Shown piece by piece: positions 7,636-28,634 of a stretch of DNA of 32,309 nt (its first letter is position 1; every line of letters begins with the position of its first letter). The DNA is from Planctomycetota bacterium (GTDB taxonomy: Bacteria; Patescibacteriota; Patescibacteriia; Patescibacteriales; UBA12465). A program made the translations under genes and the position numbers. Under the pieces are notes generated by a model. The model did not search any database and was not told the origin of the DNA. It saw only the letters and a program-made list of their open reading frames with translations. Where the stretch lies: NCBI GenBank assembly GCA_025453315.1, contig JALOQQ010000002.1, forward strand, positions 1 to 32,309. The letters run 5' to 3'.

Positions 7636-7897
7636 AATTATAATATAGAATTAATAATAAGCGTTGTTGAAAAGTTTATTAATAAATATTTTTTAACTAA
7701 GTTTAGCTTCTTTTTGGGGTTTTTAAATGAAATTTTTTGGTGGGCAATTGGTGGGTAATTGTTAGGTGATTTGTGTATAGTTTTTCTTTTGGTTCTTTTA
7801 TACACAAATGATTAAAAAGTTTTAACAGAGAATGGTTGAGGTGTTAGTTATTTTTTAACAATCAATTAACAATCTTGTTCAGTGGTTTTACACTCTA
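7636..7897. other. candidate oriC segment (dnaA-dnaN spacer) with DnaA-box-like repeats and an AT-rich tract
   Basis: 262-bp non-coding spacer. AT-rich 7636-7736. Phased box-like repeats 7737-7780. TTATACACA (fits TTATNCACA) at 7798-7806. 11-bp perfect inverted repeat 7769-7779/7799-7809. Confidence 0.5.
7737..7780 (+). repeat. four tandem 11-bp units (TTGGTGGGCAA / TTGGTGGGTAA / TTGTTAGGTGA / TTTGTGTATAG)
   Basis: Read directly. Units 1, 2 and 4 match the TGTGGATAA orientation of the DnaA box at 6/9, 7/9 and 7/9. Unit 3 is degenerate. Spacing is exactly 11 bp, one helical turn. Confidence 0.6.
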
Positions 7898-9283
7898 CTA
7901 ATCTAACAACTGTTTAATAGAATCTAGTTCTTGTTTTAGTTTTTCATTTTCTTTTTTAAGCTCATTAGAAATTTTATTATAAGCGTGCATAGCGGTTGTG
8001 TGATCGCGACCACCAAGCTCTTCACCAATTGTGGGATAAGAGGTGTTTAATTCTTCTCTCATAAGATAAATGGCCACCTGTCTAGGCCAAACTAATTCTT
8101 TTTTTCGTCCCTCGCCCAATAAATCTTTATTGGTTATGCCATAATATTTAACAACCGCCTCAATAATATCTTTGGGGGTGGTGTTTTTGGGTTGAGCGTT
8201 TGCTAAGATATCGCTTAAGATGTTTTTAACGCTTTTAATAGAGGGTTCTACTTTATTTAATTGATGAGAGGCAATTATTTTATTAAGGGCACCTTCTAAT
8301 TCTCTAACATTATTTTGAATACAGCCGGCCACATAACTTAGCACCTCGCGGTCTAGTGGAAAGTTTTTTTCATTTGCCTTTTTTTCTAAAATAGCCATTT
8401 TTGTTTCGACGTCTGGTTTTCCAACATCAACAACCATTCCAGATTCGAAACGAGAAGTAAGTCTTTTTTCTACGGCTGGTATTAGTTTTGGTGGTCGATC
8501 AGAGGTTAAGACTATTTGTTTGTTGTCTTGTAATAATTCATTAAAGGTGTGAAAAAACTCTTCTTGAGTTCCGTCTTTTCCGCCCATGAATTGAACATCG
8601 TCAACCAACAACAAGTCTACGTTTCGATAAACGCTTTTAAATTCCTTGGCCCTACCACCATGAACAGCCTGAACATAATTATTCATAAACTTTTCACTGG
8701 TGGTATATAATATTTTAGAAGTTTTCTTTAAGAGATCGTTGCCAACAGCTTGTAATAAATGAGTTTTCCCAAGCCCAACGCCACCATAAATAAATAGTGG
8801 ATTATATATTTCTCCCGGGCGATCAACAACCGCCTTACATGCGGCATAAGCTAGTTCATTTCCCTTACCAACTACAAAATTTTCAAAAAGATATCTAGTA
8901 TTAAGCCCACAAGAATTTGTTTTTTGTCCATCAATCCTAGATTCAGGGGTTGCGCTTGGTGTGGTTTCTAAATTAGCGGGCTGATTATTAGAGAAAGAAT
9001 AATTATTAATTGGCTGTCTGCTAGAGGCGTCGCGTTTTAACTCAACTCGATATTGTATCTCAGAAATTTTTTGATGACTGATTTTTTCTAGAGCCCCTAA
9101 AATACTTTTATGGTATTTCTCTTCAAGCCACTTTTTAGCAAAAGCGTTTGGAACTCCCACAATAACCTTATTTTGTTCAAAAGAAGAAATGAAAGTGTCT
9201 TTAAACCAGGTAATAAAGTTAGCGCGGGATAAGTTTACTTCAATCTCGCCCAACACCGCTTGCCAAAGTTGCTCGTTGTTCAT
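7898..9283 (-). CDS. dnaA: chromosomal replication initiator protein DnaA
   Basis: 461 aa. AAA+ Walker A GGVGLGKTHLL, Walker B LLLVDDVQF, C-terminal DNA-binding signature GGRDHTTAMHA. Confidence 0.95.
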   Translation of the reverse strand: MNNEQLWQAVLGEIEVNLSRANFITWFKDTFISSFEQNKVIVGVPNAFAKKWLEEKYHKSILGALEKISHQKISEIQYRVELKRDASSRQPINNYSFSNNQPANLETTPSATPESRIDGQKTNSCGLNTRYLFENFVVGKGNELAYAACKAVVDRPGEIYNPLFIYGGVGLGKTHLLQAVGNDLLKKTSKILYTTSEKFMNNYVQAVHGGRAKEFKSVYRNVDLLLVDDVQFMGGKDGTQEEFFHTFNELLQDNKQIVLTSDRPPKLIPAVEKRLTSRFESGMVVDVGKPDVETKMAILEKKANEKNFPLDREVLSYVAGCIQNNVRELEGALNKIIASHQLNKVEPSIKSVKNILSDILANAQPKNTTPKDIIEAVVKYYGITNKDLLGEGRKKELVWPRQVAIYLMREELNTSYPTIGEELGGRDHTTAMHAYNKISNELKKENEKLKQELDSIKQLLD

Positions 9284-9406
9284 AGGGTATAAATTAAATT
9301 TTTATTTTTGATGAGCTTATTATATCAAAAAACACTAAGCCCGCAATCCTAAAAAAATGTTTATAAGTTGTTAATAATTGGTGTATAATTTAAAAATAAA
9401 AATTTA

Positions 9407-9435
9407 TTGACCTTTTTAAGTTGAAATGTTATTGT
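9407..9435 (+). promoter_or_regulatory. putative rpmH operon promoter
   Basis: TTGACC, 17 nt spacer, TATTGT with TG at the extended -10 position. About 95 nt upstream of the rpmH ATG. Confidence 0.4.
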
Positions 9436-9531
9436 TAATCTAATATTGTCTTCTCAAGGGACAATCTATTTGTTTAATGAAGGAGACAAAGAAAAACTAA
9501 AGTAAAATAATAAATATTAATAACAATTATT

Positions 9532-9669
9532 ATGCCAAAGCGCACCTATCAACCAAACAAGAAGCGTGCCCAGAAAAAACATGGATTCTTAAAGAGAATG
9601 AGCACTGCTAATGGTAGAAATGTTTTAAAAAGACGAAAAGATAAGGGTAGAAAAGTTTTATCTAAATAA
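9532..9669 (+). CDS. rpmH: 50S ribosomal protein L34
   Basis: 45-aa ORF below the ORF-track cutoff: [45 protein letters not shown]. Canonical L34 sequence in the canonical position upstream of rnpA. Confidence 0.92.
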
Positions 9670-9673
9670 AAAC

Positions 9674-10015
9674 ATGATTTTTAAGCAAGTTAGGCTTGCC
9701 AACCACAATGATTTTTTGAAAGTCTTTAAAACGGGACGTTCTTATTATAGTAAAAACATTGGGATTAGAAGTGCTCTTAATGATTTGGGATTAAACAGGA
9801 TTGGAATTTTAGTTGGATTAAGGGTATCTAAAATAGCAGTCAAAAGAAATAAAGTTAAAAGAATAATAAGAGGAATATTGCTCAAAGAAAAAGAAGAACT
9901 AAACAGCGGGAATGACATTGTTGTTATTGTTCAGCCCGGTATTTTAGACAAAAAAAGCACAGAAATAGAAGCAGAATTAAAAATAGCACTAAAAAAAGCA
10001 GGACTTTATAACTAA
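9674..10015 (+). CDS. rnpA: ribonuclease P protein component
   Basis: 113 aa, basic. [15 protein letters not shown] (RNR-type motif). Synteny rpmH-rnpA-yidD-yidC. Confidence 0.85.
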
Positions 10016-25062: not shown

Positions 25063-25296
25063 ATGAAGCAAATAATAATTTTTTTTGGTAAACCAGGCGC
25101 TGGAAAAACAACTTTGATCCAAAGTGCTTTGGAGCGCAACAGATATTTTGATTTAAAAGCTTTAGAAAGAAGATTGTTAAGAGATTTCCCAAATTCACAT
25201 TTGAATTTGCTTAAAGAAAATGGTTTAGATTTTAAAATTTTAAATACAGAAAACAATGTTGTACAAAATATAAAAATAATAAAAAATAGGCAATAA
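25063..25296 (+). CDS. small P-loop (Walker A) protein, possibly a truncated NTPase or kinase remnant
   Basis: 77 aa. IIFFGKPGAGKTT Walker A but no recognisable Walker B or lid. Own terminator overlaps the stop codon. Preferred over the lysine-rich antisense ORF 25044-25256. Confidence 0.3.
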   Translation: MKQIIIFFGKPGAGKTTLIQSALERNRYFDLKALERRLLRDFPNSHLNLLKENGLDFKILNTENNVVQNIKIIKNRQ

Positions 25297-26696: not shown

Positions 26697-26770
26697 GGCT
26701 CGGTGGCGAAGCTGGCTAACGCGGCAGTCTGCAAAACTGCTATCCATCGGTTCGAGCCCGATCCGAGCCT
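26697..26770 (+). tRNA. tRNA-Cys (anticodon GCA)
   Basis: Acceptor GGCTCGG/CCGAGCC, anticodon stem GCAGT/ACTGC with loop CTGCAAA, T arm ATCGG-TTCGAGC-CCGAT. 74 nt. Confidence 0.9.
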
Positions 26771-26774
26771 CAAG

Positions 26775-26807
26775 ATAAGTCCATTTTTTTATGGACTTAT
26801 TTTTTTA
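26775..26807 (+). terminator. intrinsic terminator after tRNA-Cys
   Basis: 10-bp stem ATAAGTCCAT/ATGGACTTAT, T6 loop, then T7. Confidence 0.75.
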
Positions 26808-26825
26808 TTAAGATATTCACATTGT

Positions 26826-26855
26826 TGTGTAAAATTGTGGATAACCTGTGTTTTA
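26826..26855 (+). promoter_or_regulatory. DnaA-box cluster including a perfect consensus box
   Basis: TGTGTAAAA (26826), TGTGGATAA (26836-26844, perfect reverse complement of TTATCCACA) and TGTGTTTTA (26847), at 10- and 11-bp spacing. Confidence 0.5.
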
Positions 26856-26974
26856 AGTGCATAAATTAGGCATTTAAGTCCAAAATACCTTAGACTAAAG
26901 ATGTTAATTTAAAAAATAAAAAGGCATCTTTTTGTCTAATATTAGCTATAAATAAGCTATTTTGTACACAAATA

Positions 26975-27003
26975 TTGACCCCACTATTAGAAAATGCTAT
27001 AAT
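26975..27003 (+). promoter_or_regulatory. near-consensus sigma70-type promoter with no downstream ORF
   Basis: TTGACC (26975-26980), exactly 17 nt spacer, TATAAT (26998-27003). Confidence 0.6.
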
Positions 27004-27009
27004 TATCTT

Positions 27010-27516
27010 ATAAGTTGATTGATTATTATATTTTGATGCAACGGAAAATTGAATAAAAAATTTATACATCGTTCTTTAGGCTTAAAAACAAAATAAATTG
27101 AAAATTGAATCGATCTTTATGTTCCTTTTTAACTAGAAGAAGTTTAGCTAAGTTTCTTAGATGAATTTCTTTGCTTTTTACTGATTCAGATTATTGAGAA
27201 TATTGACTCAAATAAATGCAAAATGAAAATTTTGCAACGATAAAGAAATGCAATAACAAAAAAAGAAGGATTATTATATTTCTTTATTATCGGTGAATTT
27301 CAGGTAAAACGGTCGGAATAGAATGAACTATTCACCACGAATTGGTAAAAAGTGGCTTCTACTCAATAAGAAGCTCCTCCCTAAGACATTAAATATTTCT
27401 TATCTATTTTAATTAATGGAAAAAGAATATCGTCTAAGGGTATAGGGGATCCAACTTGGCCTAGTAATTATTTTATATTATATATAAAAGGGGCCTCGTT
27501 GGCCCCTTTTATTTTT
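27010..27516 (+). ncRNA. candidate ~0.5-kb non-coding transcript of unknown class
   Basis: Bounded by the promoter at 26975-27003 and the terminator at 27486-27516. No ORF of 60 aa or more on either strand. Longest ATG ORFs are 26 and 29 codons. Local helices include a GAAA-tetraloop hairpin at 27217-27236. Boundaries are inferred, not measured. Confidence 0.4.
27486..27516 (+). terminator. strong intrinsic terminator
   Basis: AAAAGGGGCC / GGCCCCTTTT 10-bp stem (6 G:C pairs), 5-nt loop, followed by ATTTTT. Confidence 0.8.
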
Positions 27517-27572
27517 GGGAAAAAACTGGTTTAATAGAGAAATAGTATTTTATATTATTGAATTATAAATTT

Positions 27573-28634
27573 ATGGCACTATCTATTGGTATAGTTGGTT
27601 TGCCCAATGTTGGAAAATCTACCTTATTTAATGTTTTAACCAAAAAGCAAGTTGAAGCTTCTAATTATCCATTTTGTACTATTGACCCTAATGTTGGGGT
27701 TGTGAAAGTACCAGATATTCGTTTAGATAAGATCGCTGCTATTTCTAAGCCAGAAAAAATTATTTCCGCGGCTATCGAGTTTGTTGATATTGCTGGTTTA
27801 GTAAAAGGAGCTCATGAGGGCGAGGGTCTAGGCAATCAATTCTTATCACATATTCGCGAGTGTGATGCTATTTGTGAAGTAATTAGAGCTTTTAAAAATG
27901 ATGACATTATTCATGTGGCCGGTAAAGTTGACCCCAGAGAAGATAAAGAAACTATTAACATGGAACTTATTTTTGCTGATCTTTCTACAGTTGATAAGAG
28001 ATTAGAAAAGGTTGTTAAAGAAACAAAAAGTGGAGACAAAGAAGCTATAAAATTAAAAGACTTATTGGAAAAGACCAAAAAACATTTAGAGTCTGGCCTA
28101 GCCGCACGTACCTTATCTTTAGATGAAGATGAAAATAAGGCTTTAAAGAATCTTGGATTATTAACAATTAAGCCTATGATTTATCTTTTGAATAATGATG
28201 GTGGCGAAAATGTTGATTTGGGCCAAACTCAAGAAGAAATTATTAATATTAATGTTAAAATAGAAGAAGAAATTGCTAGTTTGCCAGAAGAAGAGCAAGC
28301 GGAATATAAGAAAGAACTAGGAATAGAACAAAGTGGTTTAGATAAATTAATTACTTCGGCTTATAGGTTGTTGGGATTAGAAACTTTTTTTACCACCGGG
28401 ACTGATGAAACCAGAGCTTGGACTATTATTAAGGGTAGTAAAGCCCCTCAGGCCGCTGGTGTTATTCATACTGATTTTGAGAAAGGTTTTATTAGAGCAG
28501 AGGTTATTTATTGGGAAGATTTCTTGGCAGTTGGCAGTGAATTAGCTGGTAGGGAAAAGGGATTATTACGAACAGAAGGGAAGGATTATGTTATGAAAGA
28601 TGGTGATATTTGTCATTTTTTAATAAATAAATAA
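27573..28634 (+). CDS. ychF: ribosome-binding ATPase YchF
   Basis: G1 [15 protein letters not shown], coiled-coil insert, C-terminal [34 protein letters not shown] at 27573 is preferred over the TTG at 27558. Confidence 0.92.

Follow-up and report, generated by a model that had tools for sequence, protein, structure and literature searches.

Large structured bacterial RNAs such as raiA, OLE, ROOL and GOLLD are several hundred nucleotides (nt) long, have their own promoter and terminator, and combine many covarying helices with a pseudoknot or a loop-loop kiss. Their phylogenetic range is narrow, tRNA or translation genes are adjacent to them, and their function is unreadable from the neighbours. 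According to a preprint (bioRxiv 10.1101/2024.12.08.627333), the loop-loop contacts of ROOL, GOLLD and raiA have proved intermolecular. Large structured RNAs with tertiary contacts are rarely discovered, and earlier ones gave new biochemistry such as riboswitches, ribozymes and RNA-only assemblies. Here we describe a locus with the same general features. It is located between the genes for tRNA-Cys and YchF in a stretch of 32,309 nt, hereafter the window, from a Planctomycetota bacterium that GTDB places in Patescibacteriota, UBA12465 (assembly GCA_025453315.1, contig JALOQQ010000002.1, positions 1-32,309, forward strand). The segment from approximately 27010 to 27516 on the forward strand is probably the gene for a stable, highly structured, trans-acting non-coding RNA of a new family.

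Falkowbacteria-like Patescibacteria have an RNA family without a match in Rfam, of which the window carries a divergent and enlarged representative. The family is new in the sense that it corresponds to no family of Rfam 15 and that no paper describing it was found; a new mechanism is not implied. Orphan structured non-coding RNAs are a familiar kind in bacteria; what is new is this family, together with its fold and host range. The preliminary description of this DNA had proposed an orphan promoter-to-terminator unit for a large non-coding RNA of unknown class, a proposal that is supported by the homologs, the covariation, the synteny and the lack of a conserved open reading frame (ORF) reported below.

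Homologs, distribution and covariation of the family

Loci containing ychF were collected from species genomes, metagenomes and an exact-protein look-up, and every locus was retrieved via ychF. A search with nhmmer revealed a homologous unit in 13 of them (L002, L005-L008, L081, L083, L084, L087, L166, L183, L184, L185), whose YchF proteins are 66-74% identical to that of the window; homologs are thus found beyond near-identical strains. All 13 loci display the same order of tRNA-Cys, conserved DNA block, promoter, a transcribed region of 310-400 nt, terminator and ychF, where the upstream tRNA-Cys was established for the loci scanned for tRNAs. The preliminary description had pointed to both of these checks, and the tRNA-Cys/ychF flanks it named are kept. 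The promoter, TTGACC-17-TGnTATAAT, is present in all these long-form loci, with minor variants in L002, L008, L166 and L183, at the aligned position equal to that in the window, and in the relatives no more than ~10 nt separate the -10 element from the start of the core. An alignment of the window to the relatives on sequence alone is possible only in the upstream block and promoter and in the last 60-90 nt; window positions 26779-27009 match L087, L005, L081, L006, L083, L084, L008 and L007 with nhmmer E values of 4.7e-10 to 3e-5. Some of the metagenome-assembled genomes (MAGs) with a locus of the Patescibacteria type (L002, L006, L008) are publicly labelled Bacillota, Saccharimonadales or Gammaproteobacteria, and are probably mis-binned or mislabelled contigs.

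The family fold was obtained with RNAalifold, our own helix scan and manual refinement on alignment A3 (Table 1). In A3, 82.7% of the cells are paired, against 36-47% in slid controls, and 54 of the 90 pairs changed on both sides, against 16-29 in the controls; the observed pairing and covariation values were attained in 0 of 500 shuffles. Compensatory change, for which the preliminary description had proposed a test, is therefore abundant. The kissing helix between the H2 and H8 loops is 100% paired, with covariation at four of its six positions, and occurs in five variants that are all fully complementary (GCUGAC/GUCAGC, GCUAAC/GUUAGC, ACUGAC/GUCAGU, GCUAGC/GCUAGC and GCUAGU/ACUAGC); in L002, both strands are the palindrome GCUAGC. 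Helix H7 is compensated as well (GAGGCUCAG/CUGGGCCUC, ..CAU/AUG.., GAAG/CUUC, GGAG/CUCC), and the exact swaps include G-C to U-A at columns 379/435 and the replacement of GAGG/CCUC by GAAG/CUUC or by GGAG/CUCC. The invariant U-G pairs in H1 and H7, which would read A-C on the opposite strand, establish the forward strand as the RNA strand. The 5' motif of the family begins with AUAGGUUCUUUAACUA.... A further candidate helix, H3alt (UUAGCAAA/UUUGCUAG), was rejected for its uncompensated breaks in L081, L185, L083 and L184; helix Hy (AGCAAAUUAA/UUAAUUUGCU), adopted in its place, compensates those same changes.

A short form of ~170 nt was found at three loci (L003:2808-3000, L162:2314-2500 and L082:837-1015). 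It shows the same order of closing helix H1, H2, kiss and H8, with a small hairpin replacing the long arm and with the loop-loop pairs GCUGAU/AUCAGC, UGCUGA/UCAGCA and AGCUGAA/UUCAGCU. The short form has no promoter of its own; it starts ~5-10 nt after tRNA-Cys and ends ~20 nt before the ychF ATG. Its kinship with the long forms is suggested by the synteny, the order of H1, H2 and H8, and a loop complementarity judged by eye, and the short form is missed both by R1, the covariance model of the long-form 3' domain, and by Rfam. The long Hy-H3-H4-H5 arm appears to be a variable peripheral element outside the core, because the short forms also lack it. H1, H2, H8, the kiss, H6 and H7 are kept in the window, and in the family as a whole variable peripheral arms surround a constant core.

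The RNA was not found at ychF loci with another upstream neighbour (L001, L004, L161, L164, L180-182). A different, long-hairpin RNA of ~150-190 nt is present in the sister clade that lacks the order tRNA-Cys, RNA, ychF (L164:5290-5480, L161:5851-6016, L001:5112-5291). Equipped with a TTGACA promoter and a terminator of its own, it lies just downstream of tsaD in L164 and L161, and after tRNA-Glu in L001, where a perfect TGTGGATAAC box directly precedes its -35 element. The copies match each other with nhmmer E values between 1e-27 and 1e-29, and Rfam contains no family that they match.

Searches for known families were carried out against the 4,227 families of Rfam 15, at gathering score and in permissive scans (E <= 10, with scores down to ~8-11 bits). 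At gathering score, the whole window contains six tRNAs and nothing else. The permissive scan of 26770-27600 returned terminator-driven partial matches only, all due to the hairpin at 27486-27516, and the scans of the L007 unit and the L162 short form likewise gave nothing beyond such noise. The preliminary description had suggested a link to ROOL or GOLLD, which does not hold: neither ROOL (RF03087) nor GOLLD (RF02032) matches at gathering score (window, L001-L008) or at E <= 10 (26770-27600, L007 unit), and the adjacent tRNA is the sole common point. The OLE, HEARO and raiA motif models gave no match in the same sequences either, so that none of the families listed there for comparison (ROOL, GOLLD, HEARO, OLE, raiA, 6S, tmRNA and RNase P) is represented. 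In the literature, no described Patescibacteria or ychF RNA motif relevant to this RNA was found. Viral contigs were also scanned with two DNA patterns, of which one gave nothing and the other gave 12 loci that were taken as unrelated.

The copy in the window

The conserved core of the RNA encompasses residues 27174-27516, preceded by a window-specific 5' extension. Covariance model R1, built from the 13 homologs without the window, finds a full-length match at 27336-27513 of the window (50.2 bits, E 4.5e-9), where the next match reaches 20 bits. Family members score 108-154 bits, which characterizes the window as a distant member. In the R1 alignment, posterior probability is high over CACGAAUUGGUAAAAAG, the 3' strand of H1. 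Helix H1 is also predicted independently by single-sequence minimum free energy (MFE) folds, and the segment 27010-27520 folds with z = -5.4 relative to dinucleotide shuffles on the forward strand and z = -4.3 on the minus strand.

A composite alignment, A5, in which the arms were cut out for a C10 spacer, was aligned blindly with MAFFT. In its window row, all 8 aligned H1 pairs are standard and 5 of the 6 kissing pairs are in register; the set as a whole is 93.8% paired, against 24-45% when slid, and H1 covaries across the family. The kiss of the window consists of UAUUGA in the H2 loop (27201-27206) and UCAAUA in the H8 loop (27363-27368), 6 base pairs (bp) that occupy the same positions in the 8-nt loops as the family GCUGAC/GUCAGC with entirely different letters. 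Complementarity of 6 nt between two random 8-mers of this composition has a probability of ~0.006, and the evidence in the window is the complementarity of one sequence. The window shares with the family the position and promoter block, the 3' domain (H1 3' strand, H8, H6, and H7 with its U tract), H1 and the kiss.

The centre of the RNA is organized differently. No sequence match to the conserved long arm Hy-H3-H4-H5, with its loop GUCAAAAAGAAA, was found in the window, where three unrelated hairpins (27217-27336) take its place. Two of these, the hairpin with the GNRA loop and GGUGAAU/AUUCACC, had been noticed in the preliminary description together with GCUUCU/AGAAGC, and all three are part of the fold, the last one as H8. 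The 5' extension contains a GAUG...CAUC hairpin and a long local hairpin at ~27131-27167. The 5' motif occurs three times in the RNA of the window (27010-27029, 27119-27139 and 27164-27187), the first two copies being degenerate, and only the last one pairs as H1. The motif is also found twice in L183 (1083-1165), and hairpins are inserted between the copies in both cases. The 11-nt direct repeat GAAAATTGAAT at 27044 and 27100, likewise noticed earlier, is present with both copies inside the extension, and the unit contains the kissing-strand core AUUGA six times, including once in each copy of the repeat.

The RNA ends in a long 3' hairpin (27445-27506) with a GGCC/GGCC helix in its interior and an A+U-rich tip, followed by a U tract (27507-27516). 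The preliminary description had placed a terminator at 27486-27516. The G+C-rich hairpin with its U tract is indeed there, missed by a simple terminator scanner only due to its stem running into the U tract, but it constitutes the tip of the longer, covarying hairpin. As the sole 3' structure the short hairpin was rejected, since H7 is lower in energy and covaries: the long hairpin is the MFE structure of this domain, both in the window (-24.1 versus -20.2 kcal/mol for the short one) and in 11 correctly sliced homologs (-24 to -32 versus -8 to -22 kcal/mol). The 3' strand of the family, (M)UGGGCCUC, has two possible partners, the adjacent GCGGCC-type strand of the short hairpin or, ~60 nt upstream, GAGGCUCAK in H7. 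No antiterminator was found among these two alternative folds, in both of which the U tract is immediately preceded by a G+C-rich stem. The arrangement would thus correspond to a long-stem intrinsic terminator and 3'-end protector rather than a switch.

Table 1. Positions of the RNA unit, its helices and its neighbours, in window coordinates or in columns of alignment A3
Feature	Position	Strand	Sequence or remark	Basis
tRNA-Cys(GCA)	26697-26771	+	conserved upstream neighbour	ARAGORN; Rfam tRNA, 59.4 bits
Terminator-like hairpin of tRNA-Cys	26772-26803	+		terminator scan
Conserved DNA block upstream of promoter	26826-26905	+		nhmmer against relatives; invariant columns in A1 and igr alignments
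Sigma-70-type promoter	26975-27003	+	TTGACC, 17-nt spacer, TGcTATAAT (extended -10)	promoter scan
5' extension	27010-27173	+	~165 nt	sequence, fold, motif coordinates
H1, 5' strand	27174-27187	+	CUUUUUACUGAUUC; pairs with 27339-27352, 14 contiguous bp	
H2	27190-27217	+	stem AUUAUUGAG/CUCAAAUAAAU, 8-nt loop AAUAUUGA (27199-27206)	MFE fold, A5 position
Junction arm A	27217-27236	+	UGCAAAAU-GAAA-AUUUUGCA	MFE folds, single sequence
Junction arm B	27239-27291	+	GAUAAAGAAAU...AUUUCUUUAUUAUC	MFE folds, single sequence
Junction arm C	27292-27336	+	GGUGAAU...AUUCACC	MFE folds, single sequence
H1, 3' strand	27339-27352	+	GAAUUGGUAAAAAG; homologous to family GGAGUUGGUAAGAA	
H8	27355-27374	+	GCUUCU-ACUCAAUA-AGAAGC	R1 alignment
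H6	27379-27440	+	base CCCUAAGAC/GUCUAAGGG, variable interior	same place as relatives' variable H6
Long 3' hairpin and U tract	27445-27516	+	H7 GGGG(AU)CCAAC (27445-27455)/GUUGGCCCC (27498-27506)	
Short terminator hairpin	27486-27510, with U tract to 27516	+	AAAAGGGGCC-UCGUU-GGCCCCUUUU, G+C-rich	
ychF	27573-28634	+	conserved downstream neighbour, same strand as RNA	Pfam YchF-GTPase_C and MMR_HSR1
Family H1	A3 78-86/271-279		extended by GUUCUU/AAGAAU-type pairs; closes multi-way junction	
Family H2	A3 102-107/117-123		loop ACGCUGACG; UUGCCA-ACGCUGACG-UGGCAA	
Family kissing helix	A3 110-115/301-306		joins H2 and H8 loops	
Family Hy	A3 141-150/260-269		outer helix of long arm	
Family H3	A3 158-163/231-236		long arm	
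Family H4/H5	A3 179-194/210-225		conserved loop GUCAAAAAGAAA	
Family H8	A3 292-298/308-314		loop AAGUCAGC	
Family H6	variable columns		variable hairpin	
Family H7	A3 371-379/435-443		long 3' hairpin; inner helices H7b, H7c	

Promoter, upstream block and neighbouring genes

The promoter matches 11 of 12 consensus positions, has the upstream TG and heads a scan of 24-30 kb, tied with a minus-strand site that also matches 11 of 12 positions but lacks the TG. The preliminary description had chosen the same element as the best promoter match. Transcription would start at ~27010. Strongly conserved DNA extends over 26826-26973, between tRNA-Cys and the promoter, and the same aligned block is present in 13 of 13 long-form loci. 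Its first part (26826-26905) carries the invariant TGTGGATAAC(Y)TGTGTTT, which includes, at 26836-26844, the sole perfect DnaA box of the window, TGTGGATAA, present in all homologs. A second box-like site at 26857-26865 reads TGTGTATAAA in the family and GTGCATAAA in the window, an inverted repeat spans 26874-26900 (TTAAGTCCA-N9-TAGACTAAAG, also written TTAAGTCCA-N9-TAGACTTAA), and a conserved box-like GTACACAAAT at 26964-26973, with the variants AGTCCACAAT/GTACACAAAT, adjoins the -35 element. The block at 26826-26905 is probably protein-binding or regulatory DNA rather than a part of the RNA. The whole of 26826-26973 looks like a promoter controlled by DnaA or a repressor, and the conservation of a DnaA-box-like block at this place suggests that a DNA-binding protein regulates the RNA promoter. 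Through the invariant upstream box, expression of the RNA may be coupled to DnaA.

The gap between tRNA-Cys and ychF (26772-27572) is 801 nt long and contains no gene. It is the longest in the window, followed by one of ~390 nt in the ORF list, in agreement with the preliminary description, where it had been called by far the longest non-coding stretch. The ychF start lies 57 nt downstream of the U tract of the RNA unit, and the lowest G+C of the neighbourhood (23%) is found at 27000-27300. According to Pfam, the gene order is glyA, folD, recQ, ..., dnaN, dnaA, (rpmH), rnpA, yidC, ..., ppdK, tRNA-Glu, tsaD, tRNA-Cys, the RNA unit and ychF, followed by an RlmKL-like methyltransferase, rpsF, ssb and efp. 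The closest named relatives of YchF come from Falkowbacteria and "Patescibacteria group" MAGs. No YchF more than 74% identical to that of the window was found among 5.8 billion proteins, which characterizes the window as a lone lineage. An ORF of 77 codons (25063-25296) with the P-loop motif GKPGAGKTT and no Pfam match stands alone in the 389-nt gap before tRNA-Glu, and could be either the remnant of a gene or a small gene of the kinase-like type.

Alternative explanations and known systems

The unit has its own near-consensus, extended -10 promoter and ends at the long hairpin with its U tract. In an independent gene this hairpin would both terminate transcription and protect the 3' end, so that a discrete transcript would be released near 27516. 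H1 closes the junction, and H2 within it kisses H8 just outside by 6 bp, a contact that should lock a compact tertiary fold. The RNA would then act in trans as a folded RNA or as a ribonucleoprotein (RNP) scaffold, not as a simple antisense RNA, and its promoter would be regulated via the conserved box block. Beyond this, it is a serious though tentative possibility that the family represents a new class of large, complex-folded RNA with a standing like that of OLE, raiA, ROOL and GOLLD, whose conserved core of junction and kissing loop does a trans-acting job (RNP scaffold, ribozyme or self-assembling RNA) outside the known families.

The main rival is a cis-acting 5' leader of ychF, riboswitch-like or a protein-binding attenuator. 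The strong promoter would then belong to ychF, the RNA would be a sensor for a ligand or for a protein (perhaps YchF), and the terminator would set transcription into the gene. Several observations that weigh against an independent gene speak for such a leader. In the 13 long-form loci, the three short-form loci and the window, ychF invariably follows the RNA directly and in the same orientation, as it would follow a leader, although this linkage was sampled one-sidedly since all loci were found via ychF. The short forms have no promoter, and the ~20 nt between their terminator and the ychF start leave no room for one. No obvious strong ychF promoter follows the terminator in five long-form loci (L005, L006, L008, L002, L166) and the window, and the terminator 3' strand has two possible upstream pairing strands. 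An independent gene is further weakened by the relatives available, of which the closest has a YchF 74% identical to that of the window in the collections searched; by the centre of the window RNA (160 nt) and its 5' extension, which cannot be aligned to relatives and whose fold is a single-sequence prediction only; and by the transcript ends and stability, which are predicted from the DNA. By contrast, a conserved second promoter that would serve ychF, TTGGCAAAA-17-TATACT/TAATAT, is found downstream of the RNA terminator in 8 of the 13 long-form loci (L081:3964-4003, L185:1464-1503, L087:3965-4003, L007, L083, L183 and L184 among them). In L081, L185 and L087 only 7-8 nt separate the end of its -10 element from the ychF ATG, so that the ychF mRNA would be leaderless. 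Neither of the two 3' folds is an antiterminator, the terminator seems to be constitutive, ychF genes that stand in other contexts in sister lineages lack such an element, no Rfam riboswitch or leader family matches, and 330-500 nt with freely varying peripheral arms would be unusual for a leader. We therefore regard the leader as unlikely, while giving it real weight.

Far less probable are the other explanations. A very diverged housekeeping RNA (RNase P RNA, tmRNA, signal recognition particle (SRP) RNA or 6S RNA) missed by standard models would suit the size of 330-500 nt and the strong promoter. The window encodes rnpA (9674-10015), yet Rfam finds no RNase P RNA in it, 10 of 35 circular candidate phyla radiation (CPR) genomes needed lowered thresholds for their RNase P RNA (Lui et al. 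2021, PMC8172020), and AAAAGUC-like strings in the relatives resemble the 5' strand of P4. The permissive scans of the window gap, the L007 unit and the short form, however, gave no match to RNase P, tmRNA, SRP or 6S RNA (RF00010 and RF00011 at E <= 10 in 26770-27600 and the L007 unit for RNase P), and ARAGORN, applied to the window and 11 related loci, detected no tmRNA; the preliminary description, which had excluded tmRNA, RNase P RNA and SRP RNA by eye, is thereby confirmed on this point. The fold, a branched junction followed by 3' hairpins and backed by covariation, has unpaired 5' and 3' ends (no P1, acceptor or closing stem), no P4-type long-range helix such as the conserved strands GAGGAAAGUCC / ACAGAA..CGGCUUA form in RNase P RNA, no tRNA-like domain and no helix-8 motif. 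By comparison, tmRNA combines a tRNA-like acceptor and T arm with a tag reading frame, 6S RNA is a rod that pairs end to end around a central bubble, and helix 8 of SRP RNA has a GNRA loop and conserved internal loops. RNase P RNA in particular was rejected for its different architecture and the missing Rfam match, and because the AAAGUC-like and CAGA..GGCCUA-like strings are not complementary as P4 strands. As many sister genomes, in addition, lack the RNA at this place, a housekeeping RNA is very improbable and already largely refuted. We give just as little credence to a DNA element, that is, a replication origin or a titrating or DnaA-regulated cluster of DnaA boxes beside an A+T-rich unwinding region, with an incidental or origin-regulatory transcript. 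The perfect box and two to four box-like repeats in all homologs, one of them adjoining the -35 element, the low G+C content and the distance of only ~18 kb to dnaA would fit, but only one of the boxes is perfect, the compensatory changes in the transcribed part are of the RNA type, with strand-specific G-U pairs among them, and would not be seen in a DNA element, and the cumulative GC-skew minimum lies at 8-9 kb, by dnaN-dnaA-rpmH-rnpA, not at 27 kb. An oriC at the RNA locus was rejected on these grounds, and the skew minimum places the origin ~18 kb from the RNA unit. A box block that regulates the RNA promoter is possible and compatible with an independent RNA gene.

Least credible of all is a gene for one or more small proteins, or else DNA that has no function and is in decay, for instance what is left of a pseudogene. 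The longest forward-strand ATG ORFs within 26975-27516 have 26 codons (27216-27296) and 29 codons (27323-27412), and the centre of the window copy is unalignable; a 59-codon ORF on the minus strand (26890-27069) overlaps the promoter. These values bear out the preliminary description, which had reported the same two ORFs and none of 60 aa or more, and had named a small protein as the alternative. No ORF is conserved in position or sequence across the 13 homologs or the window, on which ground a small protein gene was rejected; the substitutions are compensatory in helices and not codon-like, and the window keeps promoter, terminator, H1 and kiss despite heavy sequence change.

The arrangement of dnaN, dnaA, rpmH and rnpA, together with the GC-skew minimum, locates the chromosomal origin of the window at 7636-9673. 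The dnaN-dnaA spacer contains boxes of the TTATACACA/TGTGTATAG type and GGTGGGCAATTGGTGGGTAATTG repeats, and rpmH (45 codons, 9532-9669) occupies the dnaA-rnpA gap, below the ORF-length cut-off of the listing.

An independent RNA gene would matter for several reasons. Patescibacteria genomes are very small and streamlined, and an RNA of 330-500 nt under one of the strongest promoters of the region is therefore unlikely to be dispensable. The family has a compact, well-defined core (closing helix, junction, covarying 6-bp kiss and terminator-embedded 3' hairpin) that is directly testable by structure probing, cryo-electron microscopy and metatranscriptomics, and its natural sizes of ~170, ~330 and ~500 nt mark the essential parts. 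Annotation also improves, as up to 0.8 kb is now called empty in these genomes.

A comparison with tRNA-trailer RNAs is suggested by the short form. The E. coli 3'ETS-leuZ sponge is a functional RNA from the trailer of a tRNA operon, and the short form likewise follows tRNA-Cys without a promoter, so that it would be released from the tRNA precursor by tRNA-processing enzymes. The RNA of the window and the long forms differ from the known sponges of this kind in possessing a promoter and in their far greater size and degree of structure, and most long-form loci have a terminator after tRNA-Cys. The diverged RNase P RNAs of CPR bacteria come from the same group of organisms and are comparable as housekeeping-looking RNAs of 300-400 nt, missed by annotation, with helices gained and lost between lineages. 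They still score with RF00010 at lowered thresholds, however, and keep P1-P4 and the conserved regions (PMC8172020), whereas no RNase P model matches the present RNA, in which equivalents of P1 and P4 are missing.

The closing helix, the multi-way junction and the 6-bp loop-loop contact that organizes the fold are analogous to those of the purine and lysine riboswitches and the cobalamin L5-L13 contact, which are also found upstream of a gene with an intrinsic terminator at their end. The present RNA differs from these in that its closing helix encloses only one of the two kissing hairpins, that it is much larger with variable arms, and that it has no junction sequence resembling a ligand pocket common to window and relatives, no terminator/antiterminator pair and no match to an Rfam riboswitch. 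The RNA resembles raiA, OLE, ROOL and GOLLD in its general design, and by analogy with the intermolecular contacts of these RNAs, multimerisation via the palindromic kiss GCUAGC of L002 is conceivable. It is distinguished from them by its lack of a match to their Rfam models at E <= 10, by a host among the Patescibacteria, by a context free of prophages and mobile elements, and by its own architecture, in which an H1-closed junction is combined with the H2-H8 kiss and a 3' hairpin that embeds the terminator.

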